64,000 nt of DNA from Methanobacteriota archaeon (GCA_012729095.1 JAAYDU010000061.1:11779-75778); one strand, 5' to 3'; shown: positions 22,161-50,445, counted from the stretch's first letter. The notes: generated by a model from the letters alone, not told the origin. Translations and numbers: made by a program.

Positions 22161-22210
22161 TGGATGTATAATCCATCCAATGAAAACGGTATGGATGTCA
22201 CATCCATCCA
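22161..22210. promoter_or_regulatory. Two copies of TGGATG-N7-CATCCA, 31 bp apart, just upstream of TATA-like TTTATTA
   Basis: TGGATGtataatcCATCCA (22161-22179) and TGGATGtcacatcCATCCA (22192-22210). Confidence 0.75.
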
Positions 22211-22274
22211 TCAAAGAGTTTATTACTCTCGATTGAAATTTGGACGCAGAAAACTTCTTTGGAGGAAAATAGAA

Positions 22275-22910
22275 ATGGCAAATATGGACGCATTGATTGA
22301 GATTGTCGTTAAGGGAAGGATCAAGGAGTCGAAGGGAGCAACCCAGGCCCTCCTCGATGCCGGAGTCACCGCAAGGGAGATCATCTTTGATGGGCTGAGC
22401 AAGGCCATGGAGATCGTCGGTGAGAAGTACGAGAAGAAGGAGTACTTCCTGCCCCAGGTTCTTCTGTCCGCCCAGACCCTGTACCAGGGATTGAACCTGG
22501 CCCTGCCGAAGTTGGACACCGCTTCCGCCGATGCTGCCGGAAAGATAGTCATCTGCGTGGTCGAGGGAGATGTCCACGACATCGGCAAGAACATCTGCAA
22601 GGCCCTGCTGACCGGCGCTGGCAACACCATGTTTGACATGGGTCGCGACGTGCCTCTGAAGGACATCATACAGAAGGCCAAGGACGAGAACGTCAACATC
22701 ATCGCCACCTCTACCCTCATGACCCCCACCCTGGCGGGCATGAAGGAGATCGAGAAGATGCTGGCCGAGGGCGGCCTGAAGGGCAAGATAAAGACCATGG
22801 TCGGCGGCGGTGCCACCTCCCAGGACTTTGCCAAGAGCATCGGTGCGGATGGCTGGGGCTACGACGCGAACGAGGCCGTTCGTGTTGCCGTCCAGCTCCT
22901 GAAACACTAA
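22275..22910 (+). CDS. Methyltransferase cognate corrinoid protein (MtaC/MtmC-like)
   Basis: EYFLPQVL cap; VEGDVHDIGKN (DxHxxG); STLMT; VGGG; RBS GGAGG. Confidence 0.93.
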   Translation: MANMDALIEIVVKGRIKESKGATQALLDAGVTAREIIFDGLSKAMEIVGEKYEKKEYFLPQVLLSAQTLYQGLNLALPKLDTASADAAGKIVICVVEGDVHDIGKNICKALLTGAGNTMFDMGRDVPLKDIIQKAKDENVNIIATSTLMTPTLAGMKEIEKMLAEGGLKGKIKTMVGGGATSQDFAKSIGADGWGYDANEAVRVAVQLLKH

Positions 22911-22928
22911 AGGGGCATCGCCCCAAAT

Positions 22929-22945
22929 TCCTTTTTTTTATTTAA
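22929..22945 (+). terminator. Oligo-T archaeal terminator
   Basis: T-run directly after the corrinoid gene. Confidence 0.55.
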
Positions 22946-23027
22946 TCTTATAATAATAAGATAGCTATAATAAAAATAACAGTGCAAAATTTTATACTTG
23001 CAGGTCATCATAATGTACAGGTTGAAA

Positions 23028-23837
23028 ATGTCCTCCAATGAGATCGCTGTAGAAAAGGAGATCGCGCATATCAAGCGAAAGGTGGAGGAGATGGGGCTCG
23101 AACTTCGGTACATAAGCGCCATGTTGCAGAGCTCTCAGGGGCCGGATTTCCGACGACCTGAGATGTTCGACATGCTGAGGGACGAGGCGCGGCAGAAGGC
23201 GGAAGGCCGTCTGGACGCGGGAATGGCCAAGAGATGCGAGATGCGTCCGGAATGCCGCCAAAGGTTCATGGAGCTCCTGGACGAGAACCTCCGGCTTCTG
23301 GACCGCCCGCGGATCGCCGAGGAGGACATTGAGCGTCAATCGGAAAAGCTGGCATCCCTGCGCTCGATGGCCGCCTCGGGAGGGTGCGAGGAGTGCTTCC
23401 GCGAGGTTGGCTCGATCTTCCAAGACCAGACCGAGCTGATGCATCAGCTGCAGCTTTACCGCAGCAGGGACGAGGTCCGGGACAGCATAGAGGTGATGCC
23501 GGAAGCGACGGTGGTGCGCGACATACTGGAGCCGCTTTCCAACCCCCAGAGGATGTTGATAATGAAGGCGCTTAGCCGTTCCCAAAGGTCGTTCACCGAA
23601 CTTTCCTCGATAACCAACCTTCGCGGGGGGAACCTGCTGTTCCACCTGCAGAGGCTGACAGGTACCGGCATGGTGTTCCAGAGAGGAGGGCATGGCGAAT
23701 ACGCCCTCACTCAAAAGGGCCAGAGGTCTCTGGAGGCGGTGAGCGACCTTTACATCAGAACGTCCGTCGCGGAGCAGCAGGGAACGGCCGTCATCAACGA
23801 TCACGAACGGGCGCCCATGTCCGCCAGGACCGAATGA
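23028..23837 (+). CDS. Winged-helix regulator with Cys-rich N-terminal domain
   Basis: CEMRPEC...CEEC, then EPLSNPQRMLIM...GGNLLFHLQRL...YALTQKG. Confidence 0.82.
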   Translation: MSSNEIAVEKEIAHIKRKVEEMGLELRYISAMLQSSQGPDFRRPEMFDMLRDEARQKAEGRLDAGMAKRCEMRPECRQRFMELLDENLRLLDRPRIAEEDIERQSEKLASLRSMAASGGCEECFREVGSIFQDQTELMHQLQLYRSRDEVRDSIEVMPEATVVRDILEPLSNPQRMLIMKALSRSQRSFTELSSITNLRGGNLLFHLQRLTGTGMVFQRGGHGEYALTQKGQRSLEAVSDLYIRTSVAEQQGTAVINDHERAPMSARTE

Positions 23838-23857
23838 TGGCGCAACTTGTATAATCA

Positions 23858-25255
23858 ATGAGATTGGTATCTAAAAAACCGGGGGAGTGGATGAAGGGTA
23901 TATCTAGCCGCACGTTGCCGGGTACGATACTGGGCTGGGTCCTCGCCTTCGAAGGTTTCTTCGCCCTGAGCATATCCGGTAGTGCCCACATAGATGGCAT
24001 AGGTACCATTACCGCCAGCACGTTCAACCTGGCGGCGGCGCAGCTGGTCGCCCTGGGGATATTCATCTCCGCCATATGGGCCTTCAAGATCGCGTTCCCC
24101 CTTATGGAAAGGCCCGCGCTGGTCAAACTTTTCAACATCCTCGCCTACCTGGCGATGGCTATCGTCGCCCTGGAAGGGCTGGCCATAACTTTGATGGCTG
24201 GCGATGTGAGCATCAGCGGTCTCGGAGGCGTGGGGAAGAGATGGATAGCGCTGACAGGCGCGCAGCTCTTCGCCATAGGGCTGATGTCCCTGCGCCTGTG
24301 GCGCCTGAGGAACTCCATCCCGGCCAACTGGCTTGCGGACCTGCTCGGTTCCATGGCCGCTGTACTGCTGGCCGCCGAGGGCCTCACGGCCATGGGTATC
24401 GCCGGCAATGCCACCATACAAGGGTTCGGCGGCATACTGGAACGAACGGTGTTCTACGGGGGGGCCGGTCTTCTCGCCCTTGGTCTGGCGATGTTCGCCA
24501 TGTGGTCCCTTCTCAACGACCCCTGGGCGGGAAAGCGCCTCGGCAAGCTGCTCAAGGCACGATGGTCCCTGGTCATCCTGACCGCCCTGGGCGCTGTAAT
24601 CATGGGAGCGGCGATAGCCGCCTCCACCGTTGCCGGAACGGTCACCGTGGAGGGTTCCTCCGGAGCCTCCAAGATATACGTGGTTGCGGGCATAGCCCAG
24701 CTGTTCGGGCTCGGGCTGATCTCCCCCATACTGTGGAAGTTAAGCCTGGACCCCCTGGACCGTTCTGGTCTGTACCACCTCATATCCTCCGCCTCCCTGG
24801 CCGTGCTGGCCATCGAGGGGGTGTTCGCCATGGGTTTGGCCGCGAACACAAACATCGAGGGGCTGGGCGGCATACTGGAACAGACGTTCCGAATGGCGGG
24901 CGCGCAGCTTCTGGTCCTTTCAGGCATAGGCATACTTGCCTGGCTGGTGAAGGACAGCCCGCTGCTTTCCGAATGGCCGAAGCGCGTGGTCTCCTCGGCG
25001 TTCCTGATCTCCTCGGCTATCATCGCCTTGGAGGGGATCGCGGTCATCGTCATGGCGGTCAACATTCGCATAGACGGGTTCAGCGGCGTCGGGGAAAGGT
25101 ACGTGCTCCTGGGCGGGGTGCAGATGCTTCTCCTGGCGTCCTTGGCGCTTCTGTGCTGGTCCCGGACCAGCGGCACGACAGCCAATTTCAGAACGGCGGG
25201 CACCGCCGCGGCGGCCTTCCTGGTGCTCATGATGCCCTTTGCCCTGCTGCTCTGA
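23858..25255 (+). CDS. Polytopic membrane protein built of six helical-hairpin repeats
   Basis: Repeated EG...IxGxGG...AQL units; about 13 TM segments. Confidence 0.8.
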   Translation: MRLVSKKPGEWMKGISSRTLPGTILGWVLAFEGFFALSISGSAHIDGIGTITASTFNLAAAQLVALGIFISAIWAFKIAFPLMERPALVKLFNILAYLAMAIVALEGLAITLMAGDVSISGLGGVGKRWIALTGAQLFAIGLMSLRLWRLRNSIPANWLADLLGSMAAVLLAAEGLTAMGIAGNATIQGFGGILERTVFYGGAGLLALGLAMFAMWSLLNDPWAGKRLGKLLKARWSLVILTALGAVIMGAAIAASTVAGTVTVEGSSGASKIYVVAGIAQLFGLGLISPILWKLSLDPLDRSGLYHLISSASLAVLAIEGVFAMGLAANTNIEGLGGILEQTFRMAGAQLLVLSGIGILAWLVKDSPLLSEWPKRVVSSAFLISSAIIALEGIAVIVMAVNIRIDGFSGVGERYVLLGGVQMLLLASLALLCWSRTSGTTANFRTAGTAAAAFLVLMMPFALLL

Positions 25256-25306
25256 CCCAGTTAATTTCTTATATATCGGCCTTCGTAGATGCGGAGAGAG
25301 ATCAAC

Positions 25307-27277
25307 ATGGCTGCTAGAAGATTGGGATTGGGACTGGACACTGGCGGTACCTACACCGACGCCGCGATCGTTGACATGGACACATTGGAGGTGTTGGCCA
25401 AGGGCAAGTCCCAGACCACCTATCAGGACCTTTCCATCGGAATGCTCGGTGCGATAGACGAGGCATTGCATAGCGACGCTTACGATCGGGCGGACATAAA
25501 TTTCGTGGGGCTGTCCACCACCCTGGCCACCAACTCCATACTCACCGGAAAAGGGGGAAAGGTCGGCCACATAGGCATCGGCTGGACGCCCATGCCCGGT
25601 TACAGGTCCGGCGCAGACATGGACGCCTACGTGCAAGGTGGCCACGGGGTATGGGCGCAGCAGCAGGCCCCCCTGGACACAAAGGCTTTGGACGAAGCGA
25701 TCGGGTCCATGAGGGACGAGGTGGACTCCTTCGTGGTCTCTAGCCATTTCAGCGTTTACAACCCCTCCCACGAGCTGGAGGCGGCCCGCAGGATCAAGGA
25801 GCTCACCGGGTTGCCGGTGGTGCTGGGTCATCATCTGACATCTCAGCTGGGAGTGCCCGAGAGGAGCGTGACGGCCGTATTGAACGCCCGGCTGCTTCCG
25901 ATAATCTCTGATTTCCTGGACGGAGTGGAGAGGTCCCTGATGGAAAGGGGGGTAGATGCCACCATACTGGTGTTCAAGGGCGACGGCACCCTGATGAACA
26001 TCGAGAAGGCCAGGGAAAGGCCGGTGGAGACCATACTGTCCGGACCGGCGGCCAGCCTGATGGGCGGCAAGCTGCTGTGCAAGAAGGACAACTTCATGGT
26101 GGTGGACATCGGGGGAACCTCCACGGACATAGCGTATCTGGACGACGGGTTCCCTCGCATATCCAAGGAGGGGGCCACCGTCGGTCACTGGCGGACCAGG
26201 GTACGGGCCATAGACATATGGACGGTGGGGCTGGGAGGCGATTCCCACGTCATCTCCGACCAGCGCGGCCGTTTCAAGATAGGTCCGGAAAGGGTGGTCC
26301 CCCTGTCCGTGGCCTCATCCTCCTATCCCAACATCAAGGACAAGATGAACTCCACCAGCGAGACCAATTACTACCTTCACGTGGAAAGGAACACCTCCAA
26401 GCTGTCCGAGAAGGAGAGGGCGCTCTATCAGTTCGTCAAGGCCAACCCGATATGCACCCTGGAGGAGATACGCCTTGGCGTTCCGGAGGTGTACACCTAC
26501 CGGGACCTGGTCAAGCGGCTCAAGGACCGCGGCTTCCTGCAGATGACCGGGCTCACCGCCACGGACTTCATGCACGTGCAGGGGCACTTCGACCGTTTCG
26601 ATACGGAAGCAGCCACGTTAGGGGTACAATTCATGGCCAACTGGGGGCACAAGCCCTTCGACGAGTACGTCGGATCGTTCCAGAGGGAGTTCGTCACCCG
26701 GGTGGGCGAGGAGGTCATGCGCAAGGTGGTCTTGGACGAATCGGGGGACATGCCCGAGAGCCCCGGTTTCAACTACGTGCTGAGATCCATGGTCAACGGG
26801 AACTCGGGGAGCAGCATAGGCGCCCATACCGCTCTGGACCGGCCATTGGTGGGCATAGGGGCTCCCACGCACATTTACATGCCGCCGCTGGAGGAAAGGA
26901 TGGACGTCGAGGTGATCATGCCCAGGGACCACGATGTCGGGAACGCAGTGGGAGCGGTGTGCAGCCAGATATCCGAGACGGTGACCGCGCAGGTCTTCCC
27001 GAACATGGACAACGTGTTCTTCGTGCTCGGGCCGTTCGGCTCTCCGATGACCTATTCCCACGTGGAGCAGGCCATCAGCTCCGCCCGCCGGCATGCTGAG
27101 GAGTACGTGAGGCAGAGGGTGTACGAGGCGGGGGCGGAGAACATCCGCGTGCGCAGCGACACATACGAGAACAAGTTCTTCGGCGGTGACAACGTGGAAG
27201 GGGAGCAGGTGGCATGGGTGGACATCGTGGCCAGGGCGACCGGGGACCCCGTCTCCAAGGATAAGAAGGCTCTCTGA
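25307..27277 (+). CDS. Hydantoinase/oxoprolinase family protein (ASKHA ATPase)
   Basis: GLDTGGTYTDA, STTLATN, TILSGPAAS, VDIGGTSTD, GLGGDS, GNAVGA. Confidence 0.9.
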   Translation: MAARRLGLGLDTGGTYTDAAIVDMDTLEVLAKGKSQTTYQDLSIGMLGAIDEALHSDAYDRADINFVGLSTTLATNSILTGKGGKVGHIGIGWTPMPGYRSGADMDAYVQGGHGVWAQQQAPLDTKALDEAIGSMRDEVDSFVVSSHFSVYNPSHELEAARRIKELTGLPVVLGHHLTSQLGVPERSVTAVLNARLLPIISDFLDGVERSLMERGVDATILVFKGDGTLMNIEKARERPVETILSGPAASLMGGKLLCKKDNFMVVDIGGTSTDIAYLDDGFPRISKEGATVGHWRTRVRAIDIWTVGLGGDSHVISDQRGRFKIGPERVVPLSVASSSYPNIKDKMNSTSETNYYLHVERNTSKLSEKERALYQFVKANPICTLEEIRLGVPEVYTYRDLVKRLKDRGFLQMTGLTATDFMHVQGHFDRFDTEAATLGVQFMANWGHKPFDEYVGSFQREFVTRVGEEVMRKVVLDESGDMPESPGFNYVLRSMVNGNSGSSIGAHTALDRPLVGIGAPTHIYMPPLEERMDVEVIMPRDHDVGNAVGAVCSQISETVTAQVFPNMDNVFFVLGPFGSPMTYSHVEQAISSARRHAEEYVRQRVYEAGAENIRVRSDTYENKFFGGDNVEGEQVAWVDIVARATGDPVSKDKKAL

Positions 27278-30872: not shown

Positions 30873-31038
30873 GGTATCATTCCATCGCCGTTAAGGTCCT
30901 TACGGGTATAATTCCGTTGCCTCGCAGCGTGCATGGAGGGTCGCAAGGAACATGGGAAGCTGGATACCTCCGCAAAGTCCGAACCTCCGGGAACAGTATT
31001 ATAAATCCGACGAAAGCTTTCTCCCCACGAGGTTATCC

Positions 31039-32685
31039 ATGGCATTGGGAGTCGCGCTCGATTTGGGCACTAGCGGTTACCGGGGACACCTGGTAGATCT
31101 GGACAAGAAAGGTAAGATCCTGGCTACGGCCATTACCATGAGGCACCCGCTACCTGGGGCCAACATCATGGACCATTTGCACTTCTGGATGGAGAACGGT
31201 CCTGAGGTAGGCCATCGTATAGTCATCGAGACCGTGGACAAGCTGATCGGTACCTTGGGGGCCAAGCCAGAGGAGATCGAGAGGGTGTCCGTGTGCGGCA
31301 ACCCCGCGCAGATGTCCATGTTCGAGAAGATCGAGGTACGTGATCTGGCGTACGCCGGGCAATCCATACTCAAGAGGCTGAACGTCAAGATCCCCGAACG
31401 CAAGGCGCACTCCATCAAGGCCGAGGAGCTGGGAATGAACTCGGTGAGGCGCACCGCCGAGGTCAGGATACCTCCATCGATCCGCCACGAGATAGGAGCT
31501 GACGCTCTTGCCATGATCATGAAGACCGGGCTGATGGACAAGAAGGAGACCTGCCTGGTCACCGATTACGGCACCAACGCCGAGATGGGCCTGTTCTACA
31601 AGGGTGAACTGTACACTGGCTCCGCCGCTGCCGGGCCGGCCATGGAGGGGCAGTCCATCGACTTTGGGATGCTGGCCGCGCCCCAGGCCATTTCCGATAT
31701 CACACTGGGCGAGAACGGCAAATGGTACAACATAGTACTCAACGACAAGCTGCACCCGACAAAATCCTCATTGGTCGATCCACGCACCGGGGAAGAGCAG
31801 CGCCTTGACGGGGTAATAGCCCGCGGCATAACCGGAACAGGGACCGTGGCCGCCATGGCCGTAGGGTTGGAGACCGGCATCATCAAGCTGCCGTACGTGG
31901 ACACTCCGGACCACAAGATACATCTCACCAACGGCATACACTTCTGCGAGGAGGACGTCCGGGAGGCCGGCAAGGCCACCGGGGCCATACGCGCCGGGCA
32001 CCGCACCCTCATAGAGGAGGTGGGAGTGGATGAGCGCGATATCAAGACCATGTACATGGCCGGGGCCTCCGGTACCTACGTCGATCCTATCAAGGCGCAG
32101 ACCGTAGGGCTCATCCCCAGGATCCTGGAGAAGACCGTGCAGGCCGGGAACACCTCCCTCATGATGTCCTACGACATACTGGTGGACGATGACGGCCTGG
32201 ACAAGATGCAGGACGTGGCCAACGCCATTTCCAGCAAGCACATCATGTTCGCCACCAGCAAGGTTTTCGAGGACATATACGTCAACGAGATAGCCTACTG
32301 GACCGAGGGCATGTCCATGGAGATGTACAACGAGATGATCAAGCATGCCGGGCTTCGGCCGCTGCCTGACATCGTCCGTCCCAAGGAGACCATACGCCTG
32401 GTGTTGTCCGACATACCGGTGATCGGCGCTCGCGGACTGAAGACCTTGGACGATGTGGGCGTCTACCTCATGGGGTCCTTCGAGGGATGCATAGGCTGCA
32501 AGAAGTGCCAGAAGGAATGCCCCGAGTGCGCCCTGCAGGTATCGACCGTCGGCGAGAAGAAGTACCAGATCAGGATAAACACCGAGCACTGCTTGGGAAC
32601 GGCCTGCAAGAACTGCCAGTCCGTCTGTCCGGAAGGGGTCTTCGACTTCTCCGGTCTCAAGATAGTCAAGAAGGGAGAAGCTTAG
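31039..32685 (+). CDS. ramA: Corrinoid protein reductive activase RamA
   Basis: ALDLGTSGYR, HPLPGANIMDHL, DYGTNAE, SAAAGPA; C-terminal 2x[4Fe-4S] CIGCKKC...C and CLGTACKNC...CP. Confidence 0.92.
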   Translation: MALGVALDLGTSGYRGHLVDLDKKGKILATAITMRHPLPGANIMDHLHFWMENGPEVGHRIVIETVDKLIGTLGAKPEEIERVSVCGNPAQMSMFEKIEVRDLAYAGQSILKRLNVKIPERKAHSIKAEELGMNSVRRTAEVRIPPSIRHEIGADALAMIMKTGLMDKKETCLVTDYGTNAEMGLFYKGELYTGSAAAGPAMEGQSIDFGMLAAPQAISDITLGENGKWYNIVLNDKLHPTKSSLVDPRTGEEQRLDGVIARGITGTGTVAAMAVGLETGIIKLPYVDTPDHKIHLTNGIHFCEEDVREAGKATGAIRAGHRTLIEEVGVDERDIKTMYMAGASGTYVDPIKAQTVGLIPRILEKTVQAGNTSLMMSYDILVDDDGLDKMQDVANAISSKHIMFATSKVFEDIYVNEIAYWTEGMSMEMYNEMIKHAGLRPLPDIVRPKETIRLVLSDIPVIGARGLKTLDDVGVYLMGSFEGCIGCKKCQKECPECALQVSTVGEKKYQIRINTEHCLGTACKNCQSVCPEGVFDFSGLKIVKKGEA

Positions 32686-33531
32686 TTGAGGCTCACCTGC
32701 CTGGTAGAGGATAGCTCGGGCACCGCGAACCCCGGCATGTCCATTTCCAAGGCCGCCGGCAACTTCCTCGCCGAGCACGGCCTGTCCATACTGGTGGAGA
32801 CCGACAGGGGCAAGAAGGTGCTGCTCGACACCGGTACCTCGGAAAGGGCGTTCCTGAACAACATCGGCCTGATCGGCCTTAGACCGAAGGACATAGACCT
32901 GGTGTTCATCTCTCACGGACACTACGATCACCTGGGCGCTTTGCCTCTGCTTCTGAGGGAAGGGGTACCGGTGCACACCCACCCCCTGACCTTCCATGGC
33001 CGGCGCTTCTTCGGGACGCCCAGCTCGAAAAGGGACATAGGGCCTTCCGCGGAGCTCATAGCGCTACTGAAGGAGAACCCCCCGGTATGCGACGACCGGC
33101 CCAGGGAGCTGGTGACGGGGGTGAGCACCACCGGGGAGATCGCCAGGAGCACCGACTTCGAAGTTCCCGCCAACTTCCTCATCGAGAGGGGCGGCGTGAT
33201 CTCCCAGGACCTCATCCAAGAGGAGCAGGCGATATGCATATCCACCCGTAGGGGCCCCCTGGTGCTCACTGGCTGCGGACATCCCGGGGTCGTGAACATA
33301 TTGACCCAGGTCCGCTCCCGCAGCGATGGCGAGATCTTCATGCTGGCCGGCGGGTTCCACCTGTGGAAGGCCGGTCCGGACGTACTTCAGCGCACCGTGG
33401 AGGGGGTCAAGGGCGTCGGCGTGGAAAAGGTGGCACCGATGCACTGCACCGGGTTCGAGGCGACCAAGATGTTCTCGGACCGTTTCCCCGGCTTCGTCCT
33501 CATGGGCACTGGCTGTTCCATGGAGATCTAG
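32686..33531 (+). CDS. MBL-fold metallo-hydrolase (COG1237-like)
   Basis: AEHGLS, LLDTG, SHGHYDHLG, TGCGHPG, GGFHL, PMHCTG. Confidence 0.9.
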   Translation: MRLTCLVEDSSGTANPGMSISKAAGNFLAEHGLSILVETDRGKKVLLDTGTSERAFLNNIGLIGLRPKDIDLVFISHGHYDHLGALPLLLREGVPVHTHPLTFHGRRFFGTPSSKRDIGPSAELIALLKENPPVCDDRPRELVTGVSTTGEIARSTDFEVPANFLIERGGVISQDLIQEEQAICISTRRGPLVLTGCGHPGVVNILTQVRSRSDGEIFMLAGGFHLWKAGPDVLQRTVEGVKGVGVEKVAPMHCTGFEATKMFSDRFPGFVLMGTGCSMEI

Positions 33532-34412: not shown

Positions 34413-34413
34413 G

Positions 34414-39660: not shown

Positions 39661-39702
39661 GCACGCGTAACCTTTTAGACAGCTTGCACGATTTCCCCTT
39701 CC

Positions 39703-40899
39703 ATGGAACTGCACCCCGCTCCCAAGACATACACCAAGGACGGCCATAGGGCCATAAGTCCCGCGGCCACATTAAAGCGGATAGAACCGCTCATGCCCCG
39801 GGCGGGCATCACCAGGGTGGCGGACATAACCGAACTGGACCGCATCGGTGTGCCGGTTTTCTCCAGCATACGGCCAGGGGCCAAGGAGGGTGCGATATCC
39901 ATTTACAACGGCAAGGGGGCCAGCAAGGAGCAGGCCAAGGTCTCCGCTATAATGGAGGCCATGGAGCGCTGCTCAGCAGAGCCCAGGGCCGATGACAGGT
40001 ACCGCCGGGACATGATGGACAACATGCTGTCGTCCGAGAACGCCCTGGACCCCCGAACCCTCATACTGCCTCCATTGATGAACATGCACGTCCTTCAGCA
40101 GCCCATAGCCTGGGTGAAGGGCTTCGACCTGATGGAGGGTGAGGAAATATGGGTACCGGCATGCGCAGTGTACCATCCATACGTGGCCGTGAACGACCTG
40201 CAGCTGTTCCGATCGAACACCAACGGGCTGGCATCCGGGAACAACATGGAGGAGGCGGTGCTGCACGCCATGTGCGAGGTGGTGGAGAGGGACGCCTGGT
40301 CCATCTGCGAGGCCCGGCGCAAGCCCCGGCAGGACATCTTGGTTGGCGATGACTGTCCTGTTGTCTCCGAACTATTGGAAAAGTTCAGCAGCCAAGGCGT
40401 GGAGGTCCATCTGAAGGACCTGACCAGCGATGTGGGCATACCCACCATAGCCGCGGCGGCCGATGACGTGCGCATGAAGGACCCGGCACTTTTGAACCTG
40501 GGTGTCGGGACGCATCTCAGCGCAAGGGTAGCGGCGATAAGAGCGCTCACCGAGGTGGCGCAGAGCAGGTGCACGCAGATACACGGCGCCCGGGAGGACA
40601 CCACCAAGGCCGACCTGAACCGAACCGTTGGATACGAGAAGATGAAGAAGCTCAACTCCATGTACTTCTCTTCGTCGGAAGGGACCGGCATCGCGGACTT
40701 TCCCGAGCAGGACACCAAGGACCTGCTGGAGGACATCGAGCTTGTTCTCGCACGCCTGGACTCCATCGGCGCTGACAAGGTCATCGCCGTTGATCTCACC
40801 CGTCCCGACCTGAACGTTCCAGTGGTGCGCATGATCGTACCGGGCATGGAAATATACGCCATGGACATGGACCGCTTGGGTCCGAGGCTGCTCGAATGA
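39703..40899 (+). CDS. ycaO: YcaO, McrA-glycine thioamidation protein (methanogenesis marker 1)
   Basis: GITRVADITELDRIGVP, GKG, SNTNGLASGN, EVVERDA, ALTEVAQSR; adjacent to tfuA and mcr. Confidence 0.93.
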   Translation: MELHPAPKTYTKDGHRAISPAATLKRIEPLMPRAGITRVADITELDRIGVPVFSSIRPGAKEGAISIYNGKGASKEQAKVSAIMEAMERCSAEPRADDRYRRDMMDNMLSSENALDPRTLILPPLMNMHVLQQPIAWVKGFDLMEGEEIWVPACAVYHPYVAVNDLQLFRSNTNGLASGNNMEEAVLHAMCEVVERDAWSICEARRKPRQDILVGDDCPVVSELLEKFSSQGVEVHLKDLTSDVGIPTIAAAADDVRMKDPALLNLGVGTHLSARVAAIRALTEVAQSRCTQIHGAREDTTKADLNRTVGYEKMKKLNSMYFSSSEGTGIADFPEQDTKDLLEDIELVLARLDSIGADKVIAVDLTRPDLNVPVVRMIVPGMEIYAMDMDRLGPRLLE

Positions 40900-41531
40900 G
40901 CCGCCCGGTCGTGTATCTCGGTCCCAGCCTGCCCGTCGAGGAGGCCAGGGCCCTGCTGGACGCCGAATACCGGCCACCGGTGAAAAGAGGCGACCTGTCC
41001 GCCCTCGGCCCCGCCGAGGTCGTAGGGATAATCGACGGTGCGTTCCTGCAGAACTGCTCGGTCGGACACCGGGAGATACTCTCCCTGCTATCGAGAGGGG
41101 TAAAGGTGATCGGCGGGGGAAGCATGGGAGCCCTGCGGGCCGCAGAGATGCAGGCGTACGGGATGATCGGCGTGGGAAGGATATTCCAGATGTACGCCGA
41201 CGGTGTCATCGAGGGAGATGACGAGGTGGCCCTGGTGTTCGACCCAGCTTCTATGGAACCCCTGTCCGAGCCCATGGTCAACCTGCGTTTTTTGATGGAT
41301 AAGATGCTAAAGGAGGGAAAGGTCTCCGCCGGGGAACATCACGGCATTCTGTCTTCCTATCGTTCGATCTACTATCCAAGACGCACCATAGCCGCCTTCC
41401 TCGATACTTCGGAAAAGTTCCTAGGGGAGGAGAGGGGCCGCGTTTTCCGTCAGGATTTCCCAATTCTCTATCAGGATGTGAAAAGGGAGGATGCTATTTC
41501 CGTCATTAAACGCATTGGAGAACTGGTGTAA
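40896..41531 (+). CDS. tfuA: TfuA, McrA-glycine thioamidation partner
   Basis: VYLGPSL, PPVKRGD, IIDG, SMGALRAAE, DDEVA. Confidence 0.93.
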   Translation: MSRPVVYLGPSLPVEEARALLDAEYRPPVKRGDLSALGPAEVVGIIDGAFLQNCSVGHREILSLLSRGVKVIGGGSMGALRAAEMQAYGMIGVGRIFQMYADGVIEGDDEVALVFDPASMEPLSEPMVNLRFLMDKMLKEGKVSAGEHHGILSSYRSIYYPRRTIAAFLDTSEKFLGEERGRVFRQDFPILYQDVKREDAISVIKRIGELV

Positions 41532-41682
41532 AGGGCGCATTCCTTAATATAGTGCCTCCATAAAAAAATTAAAACGAGCCTCTAATATAATATTAAATAT
41601 TTTCAATATAAAAAATTTTTACACCGTTAAAGTAACACCGTTCATGCCTGGACGGTGTGGAAAATTAAGCTATTGTTTAACA

Positions 41683-41701
41683 TGGATGGATTGTCCATCC
41701 A
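41683..41701. promoter_or_regulatory. TGGATG-N7-CATCCA palindrome 9 bp upstream of TATA-like TTATAT of mcrB
   Basis: TGGATGgattgtcCATCCA. Confidence 0.75.
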
Positions 41702-41814
41702 TCATCAAGCTTATATTCTAACTTAACATTCACAAGTCCGCAAGGGGTACCGGTTTTCTCATGAATGATGCAAATCTGATCGAGGAGACCGAGTAAATGA
41801 ACAGGAGGTAAAAA

Positions 41815-43146
41815 ATGGCAAAGTACAAGGACAAGGTGGACTTGTATGACGACAGAGGCAAACTGATCGAGAAAGACGTGTCTCTGGACGCTATAAGTCC
41901 TTTAAACAACGCCGCCATTAAGCGAACCATATCTCTGACGAAGAGAACTATCGCCGTCAACCTTGAGGGTATTGAGAAGGGTCTCAAGACCGGAGCGGTT
42001 GGAGGATTGAACGTTCCCGGCAGGGTCTTGGACATCGCTGTAGTGGCGAACGCTGACAAGCTGGCCAAGAAGATCAAGGACACTCTGAAGGTCGCCAAGG
42101 ACGATGACACTGAGATCAAGATGATGGCGGGCGGAAAGAGAATGGCCGTGACCTGCCCCAGTAGCAGGATAGACACTGGAGCCGAGTACACCACGGGATA
42201 CACCGCGGTGGCCGCCGCTGTCACCGAGGCAATCATCGAACAGTTCGATGTGAACATGTTCGAGGCCTCGATGGTCAAGGCAGCTGTCTGGGGAAGGTAC
42301 CCGCAGACCATCAACATGGTCGGGTCCAACCTGAAGAGCATCCTCGACGTCCCGCAGCTGAACGAAGGTACCGGCTACGCCCTCAGGAACATCATGGCTA
42401 ACCACATAGTCATGCTGACCGGCAGGAACGCCATGAACGCCGCCGCGCTGTCTTCTATATATGAGACCGTGGCCGCCTACGAGATGGGCGATGCGATCGG
42501 CAACTTCGAGAGGCAGCACCTGCTGTCCCTGGCCTATCAGGGACTGAACGCCAACAACCTGGTCTACAGCTGGGTAAAGGAGAACGGCAAGACCGGCACC
42601 GTCGGTGATGTCGTAGCTTCCATGGTTGGCCGCGCTCTTGATGACAAGGTCATCAAGAAGGGAAAGAAGTTCCCCTCCGGATTCGTTGAGTACACAACCA
42701 ACGACTTCCCGCTGTGGAACGCCTATGTTTCCGCTGGTCTGCTGGCTGCGATCTGCGTGAACATCGGTGCCGCTAGGGCTGCGCAGGGTATCCCATCCAC
42801 CATTCTGTACTACAACGACCTGGTGGAGCACGAGACCAGCCTGCCCGGAACTGACTACGGTAGGGCCATGGGTACTTCCGTCGGTATGTCCTTCTTCAGC
42901 CACTCTATCTATGGTGGCGGCGGTCCTGGACTGTTCCACGGAAACCACGTGGTTACCAGGCACGCCAAGGGAACCGTCATACCCGTTATCGCCGCTGGAT
43001 GCTCTCTCGATGCTGGTACTCAGTACTTCAGCGCAGAGAACACCTCTCTGATGATGGGGGAAGTGTTCGGTGAGATCGACGTGTTCAAGGGCCCGTTGAA
43101 GATGGTCGGCAAGGAGGCCAAGAAGCTGAAGGAGCAGGGTGCTTAA
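41815..43146 (+). CDS. mcrB: Methyl-coenzyme M reductase beta subunit
   Basis: [40 protein letters not shown]. Confidence 0.99.
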
Positions 43147-43148
43147 AC

Positions 43149-43571
43149 ATGAGTCAGCCTACCTCCGAGGAGGTACCCCTTCCTGAGATCATGGTATTTC
43201 CGGAGCGTATGCTCTTGGCCGATACCACCGAAACGCTGCTGAACAAGCTGCATGAGGTGAAGAACGTCAAGAGGATCACCGTGCAGGGCGAGGACCTGCC
43301 GGCGATCATGAAGGCAGGCCCCGGTACCGGCGGTCCGGTGGATCATCCAGAACGCCGCGTCATCAAGGTCGCAGGCAAAGATATGGAACTGAAGGTATTG
43401 GTCGGTAGGATACTCGTAGAGATATCCGACATGGACTTCGTACCTCAGGCCATGAAGGATATTAAAGAGGTATGCGAAAGCGTGTTCCCCTTTAATTTCA
43501 CTCTAGAGGTAGGCAGATACTCAAAGTTCAAGCCAACTGTATCCGACTACAAAAAAGGATTGGTGAAATAA
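43149..43571 (+). CDS. mcrD: MCR operon protein D
   Basis: [31 protein letters not shown]. Confidence 0.95.
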
Positions 43572-43572
43572 C

Positions 43573-44355
43573 ATGGCTAAATCAAAGTATAAGGCACAAT
43601 TCTATCCTGGCAACACCCTGCCCGCCAAGAACCGGAGACGCTTCTTGGACCCCAGCGAGAAGCTGGAGAAACTCCGCGACGTTCCGATGGACGACGTGGT
43701 CAAGATCCTGGGTCACAGGACCCCTGGTTCCGACTACGCTACCATCCACCCGCCGCTGGAGGAGGGTAACGAGCCCGACTGCCCTATCAGGGCGCTGGTC
43801 GAGCCCATCGAGGGTGCGAAGAAGGGAGACAGAATCAGGTACGTTCAGTTCACTGACTCCGTGTACTATGCCCCTATCATTCCGTATGTTAGAGCTCAGA
43901 TGTACATGTGGAGATTCAGGGGAATCGATACCGGTACCCTGTCTGGAAGGCAGATCATCGAGATGAGGGAGAGGGACGTCGAAAAGGTGGCCAAGGAACT
44001 CATCGACAACGAGACCTTCGATACCGCTAGGACCGGTATCAGGGGAGCGACCGTGCACGGCCACGCCGTTAGGCTGGACGAGAACGGGCTGATGTTCGAT
44101 GCCTGGCAGAGGTTCCGGTGGAACGCGAAGAAGGGCGAGGTCGAGTATGTGAAGGACCAGGTCGGTGTCCCGTTGGACAAGCCTGTTCCGGTCGGAAAGC
44201 CCATGCCCGAGAAGTGGTTGAAGGACCACACTACCATGTTCCGCGCCGACGGCGTAGACATGAGGGACGACGAGGAGGTCATGAGGCAGAACCTCAGAAT
44301 ACACACCCTCAGGACCAAGTGTGGCTTCCAATCCTTCAATGTTAAGGAGGACTAA
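43573..44355 (+). CDS. mcrG: Methyl-coenzyme M reductase gamma subunit
   Basis: [33 protein letters not shown]. Confidence 0.99.
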
Positions 44356-44357
44356 AT

Positions 44358-46022
44358 ATGGCGAAGGAAAAGGAAAAGATGTTCATCGCCGCCATGCACA
44401 AGAAGTTCAAGGAGGAACCCACCGAGGTCCGCTCCAAGCACTATTCCTACGGAGGCTGGAGACAGTCGAAGAGGAAGCGGGAGTGGGTTGAGCAGTCCAA
44501 CAAGATTGCCAAGGCCCGTGGAATCCCCATGATGAACCAGGATGTTGGTGTGGCTCTCGGCCAGCGTGTCTTGATGCCCTACCAGTTGTCCCACACGGAC
44601 ATCTATGGCGAGGCCGATGACCTTCACTGGGTCAACAACGCTGCTATGCAGCAGTGCTGGGACGACATACGCAGGACCGTCATCGTCGGTCTGGATGTGG
44701 CCCACAACGTTATCGAGAAGAGGCTGTCAAAGGAGGTCACCCCTGAGACCATCAACCGCTACCTGGAGGCTGTTAACCACACCATGCCGGGCGGCGCAGT
44801 GGTACAGGAGCACATGGCCGAACTTTGCCCTGAACTCGTGAAGGACTCCTATGTCAAGGTGTTCTCTGGTGACGACGAGCTTATCGACGAGATCGACAAG
44901 TGCTACGTCATCGACATAAACAAGGAGTTCCCCGCGAAGCAGGCCAAGGAGCTGAAGGCCGCTGTCGGCAAGAAGCTGTGGCAGGTCGTTCGTGTCCCGT
45001 CCATCGTTGGACGTGTGTGCGATGGTGGTACCATATCCAGGCACTCTGCTATGCAGATATCCATGGCCTTCATCACCGCGTACAGACTGGCTGCCGGTGA
45101 AGCGGCTATCGCCGACTTCGCCTTCGCCGCCAAGCACGCCGCGATGGTCGAGATGGGTACCATGATGCCCGCCAGGAGGGCTAGGGGTAACAACGAGCCC
45201 GGTGGAATTCCGTTCGGTGTACTGGCCGACTGCGTCCAGAGCACCAGGACCCACCCTGACGACCCCTGCAGGTCTTCCCTGGAGGCTGTCGCTCTCGGTT
45301 CCGTCATCTACGACCAGATATACCTCGGATCGTACATGTCCGGCGGTGTCGGGTTCACTCAGTACGCAACCGCCTCCTACACCGACAACATTCTGGAGGA
45401 CTACACCTACTGGGCGTACGACCTGCTGAAGGACAAGTACGGCGGTCTCTGCGCAAGCGAGCCGAGCACCGAGCTGATGGAGAAGCTGGGTTCCGAGATC
45501 AACTCGTACTCCCTCGAGATGTACGAGCGCTACCCGGCCGCCATGGAAGCCCACTTCGGTGGGTCCCAGAGGGCCTTCGTGGCCGCTGCCGCCACTGGTA
45601 TCGGCTGTGCATTTGCCACCGGCAACGCCAACTTCGGTGTGAACGGATGGTATCTGTCTCAGTACCAGCACAGGGAGAGGCTCGGAAGGCTCGGGTTCTA
45701 CGGATACGATCTGCAGGACATGTGCGGTGCATCCAACTCGTTCTCTTACAGGAGCGACGAGGGTCTGCCCCACGAGCTGAGAGGACCGAACTTCCCGAAC
45801 TACGCCATGAACGTGGGCCACCTCGGTGGTTACTGCGGTATATCCATGGCCCCGCACGCTGCTCGCGGCGACGCGTTCGTGTGCAACCCGCTGGTCAAGA
45901 TCGCCTTCTCGGACAAGAACCTGCCCTTCGACTTCGGCAACATCACCCGGGACTTCGGGCGCGGTTGCCTCAGGGAGTTCATGCCTGTGGGTGAGAGGAC
46001 CGCGATCATACCCGCTAAGTGA
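44358..46022 (+). CDS. mcrA: Methyl-coenzyme M reductase alpha subunit
   Basis: [51 protein letters not shown]. Confidence 0.99.
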
Positions 46023-46300: not shown

Positions 46301-46313
46301 AGCAAGAAACAAA

Positions 46314-46338: not shown

Positions 46339-46388
46339 AAATTGAAACATCGGAACAGTGTCCGATGGTCTGAGTTTTTTTGAACGGA

Positions 46389-46931
46389 CTATTGAAGGTC
46401 GAAACCCACCAATATGCTGGCCAGCTTCGGATCGTCCTCAAGGTCGTAATAGTTCTTTATTATCAAATCCCCTAGCGGGGAGGGGCTGCAGGAGACGATG
46501 TTGGTGGCTCCCGGGACCTGCTCCAGCTCCGGAAAGGACACCGGGGGCATCAGGAAGTACTCCTTGGTCTTGGGCACCCTGTCAGTGAAGACAACGAAAT
46601 CCTCACCAAGCCAGCATATGTTATCCATCTCCTTAAAATGAGAGTGCTGCCCGGGAAGTATCTCCATGCCGATCACCAAGTCGGAATCTCCCATCATGAG
46701 CACCGTCGGCTCCGGGGGAGGTCTGAAACGGGTGTCTTTGATGACGCATATGATATGCTTCCTTCTCAAACACTGGTTCACTCCCTCGTTGATAACGTCA
46801 AGACCGATCTGGGACTTGATGTTGTCCTCGATCTTCTGAATTGCAGCGATGACATCTTGGCTCAGCAGGAAGGCTTTGCAAGTGCCGGTCATTCCCTTGA
46901 TTATCTCGACAGCTCTCTCCTCTGGTTGCAC
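46389..46931 (-). CDS. Uncharacterised protein, paralog A
   Basis: 180-aa ORF aligning by eye with 52673-53236. Confidence 0.8.
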   Translation of the reverse strand: MQPEERAVEIIKGMTGTCKAFLLSQDVIAAIQKIEDNIKSQIGLDVINEGVNQCLRRKHIICVIKDTRFRPPPEPTVLMMGDSDLVIGMEILPGQHSHFKEMDNICWLGEDFVVFTDRVPKTKEYFLMPPVSFPELEQVPGATNIVSCSPSPLGDLIIKNYYDLEDDPKLASILVGFDLQ

Positions 46932-47405: not shown

Positions 47406-47547
47406 TCGACCTCCATTGTCATGATGCCAGATAATCGTATGCCCTCGGGACGGGGGAAACGATAAGTAAGATGGGCCTCTATTGAAGAACGTCGCCCTTC
47501 GAGACTACCTCTTTTACGGTTAGGTCAGGGCGACGAAGGTGAGAATT

Positions 47548-49374
47548 ATGCAAAACATTAGGGCCTCAGCCGAGGCTTCCCCCGGAACGGATCTGAAGAG
47601 CGACAGCCCCTGCCAGAACCTGCTGCGCGCGGGCGATCCACAGGTGTTCGCCGTATTGATGTCGTCGGAGGACGTCGTATCCGCCAGTGCGGCCCTCAAG
47701 GGATTGTTGGCCGAGAGGGAGGCCGCTCTCCACTCGTGGGATTGTCACGTTCATCCCCTGGAACGGTCCAATGCCCTTCACTGCATCCGGGTGATGCACA
47801 ACTTCCTTTCGCCTAGGAACGAAAGGGTGAGCGGCATCTCGGTGATAACGCATCTCTTCAACGTTTCGCACGGCTCGGACGAGGGCGTTCACCCGGCCTT
47901 CGTCAGTGACGTGCTGCACATACTGAGGGGTACCACCGGCGAACCGGTCCTGGACCTTCAGGAGGCCCCTGACTTCGCCACGCTCGACGGGCATGAAGGG
48001 GGCATCGTGCGCTCCGATTACCTTGACGGGATGGCCGAGGCTATGGAGGGCTGGACGCGCAGATACCCCAGCGGGCTGTTGCCGAACGTCATTGCCAGGC
48101 GCAAGGAGAACCGTGCCCGGATATTGGAATACCTGAGCGCCGACCTGGACGATTGGAACGATTATGCCTGGCAGATGAGAAACGTCATGCTGAGCCAGGA
48201 GGTCATAGGCGACCTTATCGAGCTGACAGCGGAGGAACGCGAATCCATATCGCTTTGCATGGAGCGCCGCATCCCCTTCGGCATCACTCCCTATTACCTC
48301 TCCTTGATGGACCGCGAACCCTCTCGGAAATGGGACCACGCGGTGCGCGCCCAGGTCATCCCGCCCCTGAGCTATGTGAAAGAGGTGTTGAGGTCTCGTT
48401 CGGACCCGTCCTCCAGCCTGGACTTCATGATGGAAGGGCAGACCTCCCCGGTGGACCTGGTGACCAGGCGGTATCCCGTGATAGCGATATTCAAGCCTTA
48501 CAACACCTGCGCCCAGATATGCGTCTACTGTCAGAGGAACTGGGAGATCGAAGGCGTTCTCTCCGAGGATGCCATGGCCCCCCCGGAAAAGATAGATGCG
48601 GCCCTGGATTGGTTCGAGGGGCATCCCGCGGTGACCGAGGTCCTGGTGACCGGGGGGGACCCCGCCATACTCGCCAACGGACAACTGCGCTCGATGCTCG
48701 GTCGGCTGGGCAGCATGCCGCACATCAAAAGGATGCGCTTCGGCACGAGGGTGCCTGTTGTCATGCCTATGAGGATCGATGAAGGGTTCCTGGGGCTGCT
48801 GGCTGAACTGCATGACCCCCCCAGGCGGGAGTTCGCGCTGGTCACCCATTTCGAGCATCCCTACGAGGTGACCCCCGAATCGGCCGCGGCGATCAGATCG
48901 ATGCGCTCACTGGGCATTCCCGCCTATAATCAGCAGGTGTTCACCATGGAGAACTGCCGGCGCTTCGAGACCGTGGCGCTCCGTTCCGCCCTGAAGGAGA
49001 TCGGGGTGGACCCATATTACACGTTCAACGCCAAAGGCAAGGAGGAGACGTCCGAGTACCGGGTTCCCATATCCCGGCTGCTGCAGGAACGCAAGGAGGA
49101 GGCCAGGCTTCTTCCCGGGTTGAGCAGGACCGATGAACCGGTGTTCAACATTCCCGCGCTGGGCAAGAACCATCTGCGGGCCTGGCAGCATCACGACCTG
49201 ATCTCCCTTACTCCCAGAGGGGAAAGGGTGTACGAGTTCCATCCGTGGGAGAAGAACATCGCCATGGCACCTACCTACGTGCACCGGGACGTGCCCATAG
49301 CGGACTTCCTGGACAATTTGGCGGAAAGAGGCGAGGACCCTGAACTGTACCGCAGCATCTGGTACTACTTCTAG
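47548..49374 (+). CDS. KamA-family radical SAM protein, long N-terminal form
   Basis: WQMRN, PFGITPYY, VTRRYP, CAQICVYCQR, VTGGDP, RFGTRVP, PALGK. Confidence 0.9.
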   Translation: MQNIRASAEASPGTDLKSDSPCQNLLRAGDPQVFAVLMSSEDVVSASAALKGLLAEREAALHSWDCHVHPLERSNALHCIRVMHNFLSPRNERVSGISVITHLFNVSHGSDEGVHPAFVSDVLHILRGTTGEPVLDLQEAPDFATLDGHEGGIVRSDYLDGMAEAMEGWTRRYPSGLLPNVIARRKENRARILEYLSADLDDWNDYAWQMRNVMLSQEVIGDLIELTAEERESISLCMERRIPFGITPYYLSLMDREPSRKWDHAVRAQVIPPLSYVKEVLRSRSDPSSSLDFMMEGQTSPVDLVTRRYPVIAIFKPYNTCAQICVYCQRNWEIEGVLSEDAMAPPEKIDAALDWFEGHPAVTEVLVTGGDPAILANGQLRSMLGRLGSMPHIKRMRFGTRVPVVMPMRIDEGFLGLLAELHDPPRREFALVTHFEHPYEVTPESAAAIRSMRSLGIPAYNQQVFTMENCRRFETVALRSALKEIGVDPYYTFNAKGKEETSEYRVPISRLLQERKEEARLLPGLSRTDEPVFNIPALGKNHLRAWQHHDLISLTPRGERVYEFHPWEKNIAMAPTYVHRDVPIADFLDNLAERGEDPELYRSIWYYF

Positions 49375-50327
49375 TACCGCTCGGCCAGCTTGGCGAGCAG
49401 GTCCGAATACGTACCTTTCCCCAAATCCATGGTCGCCATGCAGGCTATGGCCTCTCGCTTGCGCATGATCGGGACGGCAATGATTGGCAATCCCCGATAG
49501 GGGCCGCTGGTCGACAACCGGCGTACTATCGAACCCCTCTTCATGGATTCCTCCAGCATCGGTCCGGTGTAATGGGTGTCAATGACCTCCCCGTCCTCGC
49601 ATCGAACACCGGGGCGGTTCCTGCTGCGCATGGTGACCGGCAATCGTCCCAGCAGCTCGTGTATGGCCAGGGCCAAGCATCTCAGTTCATCCGCCTCAGT
49701 ATCGTGGCTAAGTATGCTCGTTCCCTCGCTCCAGCATCTCCTGGCCAAATTTCCCAAAGAAAGGGCGGCTGTGACGGCTCCCTTCTCCGCCGCGTCGTAG
49801 TTGAACGCTGAACCGATTATGATCACGTCCCCATCGTCCATCCGGAAGTAGTTCTTCAGGGGCGCTACCAGGGATTGGTCTGGATACTCCTCGTCCCCTG
49901 GAAACACTATGCGGGATTCTTTGACGACCAAGGTGGTGGCGCCTACCGCCCCGGCCCTGACCGCCTCGTCCCTCTGCTCGCAGCCCATGTTGACCCTGTC
50001 GGATGCGCATTTTACCAGCACCGCGCAGTTGAACTTGCCTAAGGTTAGATCGGAAAGGTCGATCTGCCTCACCTCCACGCCGGAGTTGTCCAACTTCCGT
50101 TTTCCGCGGTCGGTTATCGTGATGCCCAAGCGGGAGCTTTCGATGCACCCCTCCCTCATCATCTTGTCCAGGATCGTCCTGGTGCTTCCCTCCCCTATCT
50201 GCAGTACGCCGGCCAAGGCCTTCCTGCCTATAGGTCCTTCCTTGGCCACCACCTGATGCGCTTTCCATATATGATAGGCGTTGAACTTTGGCGTTGGACC
50301 CCCTGCAAAGTAGGAATTGAAGGACAT
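49371..50327 (-). CDS. HTH + DUF4443-like + DUF2111 fusion protein; probable transcription regulator
   Basis: GPIGRKALAGVLQIGEGSTRTIL HTH; EQRDEAVRAGAVGATTL; LAIHELLGRLPVTMRS...YTGPMLE...GPYRGLP. Confidence 0.8.
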   Translation of the reverse strand: MSFNSYFAGGPTPKFNAYHIWKAHQVVAKEGPIGRKALAGVLQIGEGSTRTILDKMMREGCIESSRLGITITDRGKRKLDNSGVEVRQIDLSDLTLGKFNCAVLVKCASDRVNMGCEQRDEAVRAGAVGATTLVVKESRIVFPGDEEYPDQSLVAPLKNYFRMDDGDVIIIGSAFNYDAAEKGAVTAALSLGNLARRCWSEGTSILSHDTEADELRCLALAIHELLGRLPVTMRSRNRPGVRCEDGEVIDTHYTGPMLEESMKRGSIVRRLSTSGPYRGLPIIAVPIMRKREAIACMATMDLGKGTYSDLLAKLAERY

Positions 50328-50340
50328 TGGCATTATGGGA

Positions 50341-50359
50341 TGGATATATAATCCATCCA
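50341..50359. promoter_or_regulatory. TGGATA-N7-CATCCA palindrome in the divergent HTH-DUF2111 / atwA promoter
   Basis: TGGATAtataatcCATCCA; spacer identical to the copy at 22161; extra CATCCA half-site at 50374. Confidence 0.72.
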
Positions 50360-50445
50360 TAAATATGTTACATCATCCAATTGTTAAAGCCAGGAGATTT
50401 GAACGGGGTAAGTATTATATCTGCAATAATCGTTGGCAAACAGGT

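Follow-up and report, generated by a model that had tools for sequence, protein, structure and literature searches.

A conserved palindromic promoter box and a candidate HTH-DUF4443-DUF2111 regulator of mcr and methyl-transfer genes in Methanomassiliicoccales

The palindrome and the promoters that carry it

The stretch of DNA analysed here, referred to as the window, comprises 64,000 nucleotides of a Methanobacteriota archaeon (GCA_012729095.1, JAAYDU010000061.1:11779-75778). It carries a corrinoid protein gene, the mcrBDGA operon, the atwA-mcrC genes and, divergent from the latter, a gene for a protein with a PH0730-like winged helix-turn-helix (HTH), a DUF4443 and a DUF2111 domain, called the regulator below. 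Four copies of a 19-bp palindrome matching TGGATR-N7-YATCCA, called the box, are found at these genes: two before the corrinoid gene, one before mcrB and one at the 5' end of the regulator gene (Table 1). An earlier sequence-only reading had taken them for the sites of a methanogenesis regulon headed by the HTH-DUF2111 protein. Our analysis bears this out for the conserved element at the mcrB, corrinoid and regulator promoters, for the protein as the best candidate binder and for the geometry of the sites, while the proposed control of atwA was not upheld. The box is almost certainly a real, conserved promoter element, and there is a good chance that it is, as predicted, the operator of the HTH-DUF4443-DUF2111 protein.

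A pattern search recovered all four palindromes together with the details that had been read from them, namely 7-bp spacers ending in TC (identical in the first and fourth box), a 9-nt gap from the box to TTAT both at mcrB and at the proximal of the two corrinoid sites, and a distance of 31 bp between the two corrinoid boxes. Shuffled sequence gave an expectation of 0.04 matches for the 64-kb window against the 4 observed, and four or more matches were reached in 0 of 100 shuffles. In the whole genome (1,680,434 bases in 72 contigs, 59.7% G+C) the strict pattern was found only at these 4 sites, all of them in A+T-rich intergenic DNA, and the looser TGGAT-N9-ATCCA likewise occurs nowhere else. 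The 36 one-mismatch matches in the genome lie in G+C-rich DNA (0.46-0.71), the sole exception being an overlapping register at 50337. The refined consensus is TGGATGG-N5-CCATCCA with the core TGGAT-N9-ATCCA, and mcrB boxes often form a full 8+3+8 palindrome.

Conservation was assessed in 101 Methanomassiliicoccales genomes from seven families (f1-f7; genomes are coded G### and genera g##). The strict pattern is present in 93 of these genomes, with 338 matches summed (3.35 per genome); outside the order, 94 strict matches were found in 74 genomes (1.27 per genome). A reversed-pattern control, with 17 matches in the 101 genomes, was dropped as a measure of chance since it underestimates it when compared to the forward pattern outside the order. 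Given the rates of 0.04 per 64 kb and 1.27 per outside genome, chance alone should yield about one strict match in each genome, and thus the signal lies in where the boxes sit rather than in their number. When 30 loci from other families were taken blind, one per genome, the box was located 105-170 bp upstream of mcrB in 7 and 65-75 bp upstream of a corrinoid gene in 9, which supports the positions read in the window as being conserved across the order. The extended box of G173, a genome outside the order, is inside an open frame and was treated as chance or unrelated. The same was concluded for the perfect extended box of G179 (another order of the phylum; C92 position 2493), which is placed between DUF4430 and kinase genes in a genome whose HTH-DUF4443 gene, at a distance of 25 kb, is only of the short form. 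The four matches of G158, which are without extended arms, were also rejected.

At the orthologous position of the mcrB promoter an exact box was found in 41 of 89 promoters, with constant spacing to the TATA element, in agreement with its proposed role as a conserved element of the mcrBDGA promoter. In f1 the box is exact in 25/27 promoters, the remaining two loci being cut to 55 bp by contig ends. Exact boxes were also found in f2 (1/1), f3 (3/3), f4 (1/1) and f5 (6/8, the other 2 having one mismatch). Family f6 is heterogeneous, with 5/20 exact boxes, which belong to genera g19 (4/4) and g26 (1/1); the g30 promoter has a one-mismatch box, the g18 genomes with the regulator have 7 variant boxes, none of the 3 promoters from g18 genomes without the regulator has a box, and g13 has a canonical box in 0/4. 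In f7 an exact box was found in 0/29 promoters, and one genome carries a one-mismatch box in the right place.

The mcrB promoter has a fixed order of elements: a CGATTGT or AATTGTTTA type element, 3-5 nt, the box, 8-10 nt, TTATAT, about 22 nt, and a leader that starts with GCAAGGGGA and continues to TTTTC. The first of these elements is conserved in f1-f6. Related CGATTGT-type elements were found 15-25 nt upstream of the corrinoid boxes (22134-22143 in the window) and in the spacer between the regulator gene and atwA (50380-50387), and they may serve to bind another factor or belong to a longer operator. The leader start is kept in each of the seven families, f7 among them, as well as in the regulator-less genomes, and may be a conserved element of the mcr 5' untranslated region. 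Metatranscriptome contigs of two studies that cover mcr start at 41751, a weak hint of the transcript start. RNA was viewed in the form of assembled metatranscriptome contigs; none is listed over 41000-41750 or 50305-50455, which says nothing against transcription there.

The corrinoid protein gene, a single copy in the genome according to tblastn, matches the NCBIfam model for a methyltransferase cognate corrinoid protein below its cut-off. Its orthologous promoter in f1 carries an exact box in 22/26 cases, a one-mismatch box in 2 and a degenerate one in 2, always 8-9 nt before a TATA-like element. The pairing of two boxes, 31-32 bp apart, is found in 5/5 promoters of the window's genus. In four further genomes, 6 extended-type boxes in A+T-rich intergenic DNA precede 5 B12-binding genes and 1 hydantoinase-like gene. 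The boxes of f7 are also found upstream of corrinoid genes, and the assignment of the box to corrinoid/methyl-transfer promoters is supported.

An exact box is present at the 5' end of the regulator gene in 38/47 genomes, covering all seven families; the remaining nine promoters comprise 6 one-mismatch or shifted variants, 1 degenerate site and 2 that were looked at no further. On the strand of the regulator the order, in the window as in its relatives, is an AT-rich TATA-like octamer, the box and an ATG 0-10 nt further on. The box had been described as lying beside the possible starts of the gene, and it is indeed 7 and 13 nt from the candidate ATGs at 50333 and 50327. We consider one of these two to be the true start, because the conserved protein begins at GGPxPKF, just past the 50333 ATG, in all families; the nine codons upstream of 50333, up to 50360 in the long open reading frame, are the box itself. 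A box that recurs in the gene's own promoter across relatives is one trait expected of an autoregulated archaeal one-component factor.

The same box had also been regarded as a promoter element of atwA. Our data assign it to the regulator promoter instead: atwA has a TATA-like element of its own, and in relatives the box can be anywhere from about 85 to about 430 bp away from the atwA start. The idea that this box controls atwA directly was therefore discarded as unsupported. The RNA contigs of atwA, from four runs of three studies, start at 50456-50463, again a weak hint. Transcription is predicted to begin at about 41740 for mcrB, about 22246 for the corrinoid gene, 50333-50337 for the regulator and about 50443 for atwA.

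Table 1. Features of the window, with the box-bearing promoters and their genes first and other genes last
Feature	Position	Strand	Remarks
Distal corrinoid box	22161..22179	.	Exact match; 31 bp centre to centre from proximal box
Proximal corrinoid box	22192..22210	.	Exact match; ends 9 nt before TATA-like TTTATTA
Corrinoid-gene TATA-like element (putative)	22219..22226	+	Read from sequence; relatives share box-to-TTTAT/TTTAA spacing
Corrinoid protein gene	22275..22910	+	Pfam B12-binding and B12-binding_2
Second conserved element, CGATTGT / AATTGTTTA type	41670..41679	+	3 nt upstream of mcrB box
mcrB box, 8+3+8 palindrome	41683..41701	.	Exact match
mcrB TATA-like element (putative)	41710..41717	+	Constant layout of box, 8-10 nt and TTATAT across families
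Conserved mcr 5' leader start, GCAAGGGGA...TTTTC	41740..41760	+	Kept in all seven families
mcrB, mcrD, mcrG, mcrA	41815..46022	+	Pfam MCR_beta, MCR_D, MCR_gamma, MCR_alpha
Regulator gene, PH0730-like winged HTH + DUF4443 + DUF2111	49371..50333	-	320 aa from ATG 50333; Pfam
Regulator-promoter box	50341..50359	.	Exact match; second register 50337-50355 with one mismatch
Regulator-gene TATA-like element (putative)	50360..50367	-	AT-rich octamer directly upstream of box, here and in relatives
atwA TATA-like element (putative)	50413..50420	+	26 nt before ATG at 50446
atwA (component A2) and mcrC	50446..52676	+	TIGR03269 754 bits (cut-off 517); TIGR03264 290 bits (cut-off 213.5)
mmp3, mmp6, mmp5, mmp15	53391..57073	+	NCBIfam TIGR03268, TIGR03272, TIGR03271, TIGR03286
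ArsR-type HTH gene	22998-23837		279 aa, HTH C-terminal; next after corrinoid gene
RamA	30952-32682		
Lrp/AsnC gene, ycaO, tfuA	39181-41531		Upstream of mcrBDGA; Lrp/AsnC = 39181-39660

The protein proposed to bind the box

Three Pfam domains follow one another in the regulator: PF22167, the PH0730-like winged HTH (residues 42-87; 45.2 bits, cut-off 30.2), PF14544 or DUF4443 (residues 107-202; 98.2 bits, cut-off 27) and PF09884 or DUF2111 (residues 233-312; 94.1 bits, cut-off 27). Residues 40-199 align to PDB 2p8t (E 1.7e-13). The SorC/CggR-type DNA-binding domain PF21715 reached 29.5 bits against its cut-off of 30, with PDB 2o0m at E 0.078. In the Pfam scan of the regulator there was no C-terminal sugar-phosphate-binding SorC domain, no AsnC-type HTH with RAM (AsnC_trans_reg), of which the gene at 39181-39660 is a true member, neither an ArsR-type HTH nor DUF1724, and no GAF or PAS match. 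The regulator is a member of the PH0730-like family with an added DUF2111 domain, and not a SorC, Lrp or ArsR/DUF1724 regulator.

PH0730 of Pyrococcus horikoshii (2p8t, deposited as a hypothetical protein) and its kin of about 200 aa, of which several hundred were found, share the N-terminal winged HTH and DUF4443 with the regulator but are devoid of DUF2111. In the available part of one source, PH0730 is named merely as a family in a table of transcription factors (PMC6316755), and the literature searched yielded no operator or regulon for any PH0730-like member. SorC/CggR regulators possess a similar N-terminal DNA-binding domain, but their effector part is the sugar-phosphate-binding domain that was not detected here, in contrast to DUF4443 and DUF2111 on the effector side of the regulator.

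An unvarying HTH motif, GRK..L...GEGS.RT.L, is shared by 23 sequences of the seven families, in parallel with the invariant outer pentamers of the box. The homodimer model obtained a score of 0.55 versus 0.00 for the best of 3 controls, a mark that was reached by 20/30 proteins solved as same-chain pairs and by 1/23 solved as single chains. At least 51% of the contacts were common among runs, the partner pLDDT was at least 73, and the symmetric interface was located in the DUF2111 domain. The modelling supports the formation of a dimer, with the DUF2111 domain probably being its interface. Single-sequence structure prediction of the whole protein (pLDDT 30.3) was set aside, and the DUF2111 domain was modelled with an alignment instead (50 aligned sequences, pLDDT 91.6). 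Foldseek matches of this domain model were nearly all PAS/GAF/Cache sensor domains (best E 2.5e-4, TM about 0.5), and so were those of VIA-align, in which the CitA PAS domain ranked first (Z 7.6), ahead of the SpoVT C-terminal domain, dCache, IclR and NifA GAF. The matches to the SpoVT C-terminal domain, the IclR effector and the NifA GAF domain extend over 90-104 aligned residues with Z 6.0-7.5, but the identity of DUF2111 to these GAF/PAS regulators is only 9-18%. As the fold-search scores are moderate, we describe DUF2111 as a PAS/GAF-like sensor fold with reservation.

The phyletic distribution of the protein was compared to that of the box. Regulator matches that cover DUF2111 were obtained in 94/101 genomes, one being a contig-end fragment and two being split in two pieces. 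Among the other seven, five genomes have matches only of the strength of the short HTH-DUF4443 paralogue, and two incomplete genomes have none. Three genomes of genus g18 that are 99% complete (G021, G029, and G057) carry mcrB, atwA and mcrC, and DUF2111 was not found in them at all. Their strict boxes number 0, 1, and 0, respectively, the single one being inside an open frame, so that protein and promoter box are missing together, as the proposed association of the two predicts. Their mcrB promoter has kept the TATA box and lost the left half-site, retaining a remnant of one half-site, while seven g18 sister genomes with the regulator have kept a box at mcrB. In G037 and G048 the same A-to-T change is found on both arms of the mcrB box and the symmetry is preserved, as expected for a symmetric dimer. 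The box in the regulator's own promoter in seven families and the absence of boxes from near-complete, mcr-bearing genomes without the protein make the HTH-DUF2111 protein the best candidate binder, in line with the sequence-only reading.

DUF2111 also connects the regulator to the genes for MCR activation. Among 14 named control genomes the domain is found only in the two methanogens; a search of 1.84 billion representatives gave 809 matching proteins, and the three-domain form is seen in few clusters. A word-based homologue search for short DUF2111 proteins returned 10 close fragments only. COG4029 is presumably the same family as DUF2111. One report counts COG4029 among the methanogen-specific proteins (PMC1852104). 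In 16/16 loci labelled Methanobacteriaceae, a stand-alone DUF2111 gene is located between mmp6 and mmp5 (mmp3-mmp6-DUF2111-mmp5-mmp15), with identities of 38-49%. In the window mmp6 and mmp5 abut, without a DUF2111 gene between them, and DUF2111 is fused to the DNA-binding module 3 kb upstream. The stand-alone proteins therefore have the same domain and the same genomic tie to MCR activation genes, but they have no DNA-binding part. At the DUF2111 loci of Methanosuratincola, Methanopyri and some others, no mmp neighbours were seen. McrC, Mmp7, Mmp17, Mmp3, A2, and DUF2098 are reported to be contained in the purified MCR activation complex, and the available part of that report does not name DUF2111 as a component (PMC12176620). 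Two other arrangements of the domain were observed: the metagenomic protein P0018 has the same three domains fused as DUF2111-HTH-DUF4443, and P0017 has two DUF2111 domains in tandem.

Proposed mode of regulation and alternative explanations

Sites just upstream of the TFB-recognition element (BRE) and TATA are typical of archaeal activators, whereas archaeal repressors classically occupy the interval from TATA to the start. Both positions were identified here, as had been proposed from the sequence: the boxes of mcrB and the corrinoid gene precede BRE/TATA, and that of the regulator gene is enclosed by TATA and the start codon. A dimer would set its two recognition helices on two half-sites with centres about 11 bp apart. 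At the regulator's own gene, RNA polymerase would be expected to be blocked, because the operator is placed between the TATA-like element and a leaderless or nearly leaderless start; autorepression of this gene can be proposed with fair assurance. At the mcrBDGA and corrinoid/methyl-transfer operons the operator would stop 8-10 nt short of TATA, where BRE has its upstream edge. For these operons activation is slightly favoured, and repression is the less probable, though still sizeable, option. It thus seems reasonably likely that the protein is a one-component regulator which acts as a dimer, keeps its own gene repressed and governs the mcr and methyl-transfer promoters, probably as an activator. 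The candidate regulon is composed of the regulator itself, the corrinoid/methyl-transfer operons in all families, and mcrBDGA in f1-f6 with the exception of g13 and the regulator-less species.

The DUF2111 domain was probably recruited from the mmp gene cluster and would place these promoters under a signal connected with MCR activation. We put forward only tentatively that it is a sensor derived from the mmp machinery that reports the state of MCR activation or of its cofactor to the mcr and methyl-transfer promoters. What is sensed might be a coenzyme, F430, an Mmp partner, or the redox or ATP state.

Two systems offer parallels. The Msr proteins of Methanosarcina acetivorans are factors for the methanol and methylsulfide methyltransferase operons that combine an ArsR-type HTH with DUF1724 and are not known to control mcr. 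They resemble the regulator in being dedicated to corrinoid/methyltransferase operons of methylotrophic methanogenesis, but neither of their domains was found in the regulator. Ptr2 of Methanocaldococcus jannaschii is an activator of the Lrp family with a site just upstream of BRE/TATA. At the promoters regulated by Ptr2, as at those studied here, a palindromic site ends a few bases upstream of BRE/TATA; however, the protein family differs, and activation is deduced here from position.

A different possibility is that the same protein binds the box and acts as a repressor everywhere, by occluding BRE and blocking TFB recruitment until a signal sensed by DUF2111 releases it. The box ends only 8-10 nt before TATA and may overlap BRE. 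In addition, G021, G029, G057, and f7, which are box-less at mcrB, keep an apparently intact mcr promoter with the same TATA, suggesting that this promoter does not need the factor, and the two phased corrinoid boxes of the window's genus are an arrangement that is common for repressors too. On the other hand, at mcrB and the corrinoid gene the box is off both TATA and the putative start, unlike at the regulator's own gene. Moreover, mcr typically ranks with the most strongly expressed genes, as would suit a site that enhances transcription. Repression throughout is in our view possible though doubtful.

It is unlikely, to a greater degree, that another DNA-binding protein reads the box and that the HTH-DUF2111 gene is a mere target. 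Candidates are the Lrp/AsnC protein (39181-39660), the ArsR-type protein (22998-23837), the short HTH-DUF4443 paralogue, or a further factor. The Lrp gene is syntenic with ycaO-tfuA-mcrB in f1-f6, and its orthologue is missing from the three regulator-less, box-less g18 genomes. These three genomes alone therefore cannot separate the regulator from Lrp, and the separation rests on f7: 27 of its 30 genomes have no Lrp orthologue and yet have boxes at the regulator and corrinoid promoters, while G017 and G042 have the Lrp gene beside mcrB and no box there. The ArsR-type gene comes next after the corrinoid gene in 15/27 f1 loci, but the box-bearing corrinoid genes of genera g2, g4, and g7, and those of other families, have no such neighbour. 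As for the short paralogue, its HTH is homologous to that of the regulator; however, it is present in G021, G029, and G057, where the boxes are absent. That the palindrome is a DNA or RNA structure, e.g., a hairpin ending upstream transcripts, or a mobile-element repeat rather than a protein site is highly improbable: it is a perfect or near-perfect inverted repeat that would form a hairpin if transcribed, but the sequence of the arms is conserved and not mere pairing, the spacer varies freely, no T run follows the box at the window sites, the position is fixed relative to TATA and not to the end of the upstream gene, and the genome holds four copies only.

Certain observations weigh against control of these promoters by the HTH-DUF4443-DUF2111 protein. 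The regulator is present and the strict box absent in G011, G026, G067, and G090. The mcrB promoters of f7 are without exact boxes, so control of mcr is not universal, and the same promoters of g13 are without canonical ones; G006, the only g13 genome in which the regulator promoter was read, has a degenerate site only. The expected chance match in each genome has to be borne in mind, and 12 of the other 14 blind loci, which were unassigned, are inside open frames of at least 120 codons, probably being chance matches. The regulator-less g18 genomes have lost the Lrp orthologue as well. Owing to the second conserved element beside the box, another factor may share these promoters. Regarding the sensor fold, Z scores below 8 are in a range that can reflect a common arrangement alone, and whether mcrB and the corrinoid gene would be activated or repressed is read from box position only.

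Neighbouring genes and significance

The corrinoid locus continues downstream with the ArsR-type HTH gene, a 465-aa gene, a hydantoinase-like gene and two MtaA-like genes. The 465-aa gene (23858-25255) has internal repeats and matches no Pfam or NCBIfam family; it occupies the slot after the ArsR-type gene in which a substrate-specific methyltransferase would be expected. The 662-aa product of the hydantoinase-like gene (25289-27277) has a weak likeness to the glutamate-mutase accessory protein GlmL/MutL; the gene is found directly 3' of corrinoid genes in several families, and it has its own box in one genome. MtrH-like and MtrA-like genes were detected at 33528-35178, below the equivalog cut-offs. 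Methanomassiliicoccales are said to lack the Mtr complex. Convergent with the regulator gene is a KamA-family radical SAM gene (47539-49374, 611 aa) with an N-terminal extension of about 190 residues. A 180-aa gene without an assigned family (46389-46931) is kept between mcrA and the regulator gene in all families, and a distant paralogue of it follows mcrC at 52673-53236.

Methanomassiliicoccales are methane producers of digesters, the rumen and the gut, and MCR is the methane-making enzyme. In the literature searched we found no paper on how these archaea control MCR, and no description of the box, of a regulon in Methanomassiliicoccales or of a function for DUF2111 or DUF4443. The pattern of the box suggests that methane production is under a genetic switch that has yet to be described. 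With the operator defined, a candidate protein named and a clade that has naturally lost the regulator, this question can be put directly to the test. The analysis also offers an initial clue to what three uncharacterized families do, i.e., the PH0730-like HTH, DUF4443, and DUF2111, and it connects DUF2111 with the MCR activation system, which has recently been solved (PMC12176620). If the proposed role of the regulator and its DUF2111 domain is true, MCR would have its first dedicated transcriptional regulator, one that links enzyme activation to gene expression in hydrogen-dependent methylotrophic methanogens. The stand-alone DUF2111 proteins of other methanogens would then have a sensing role within the activation system.

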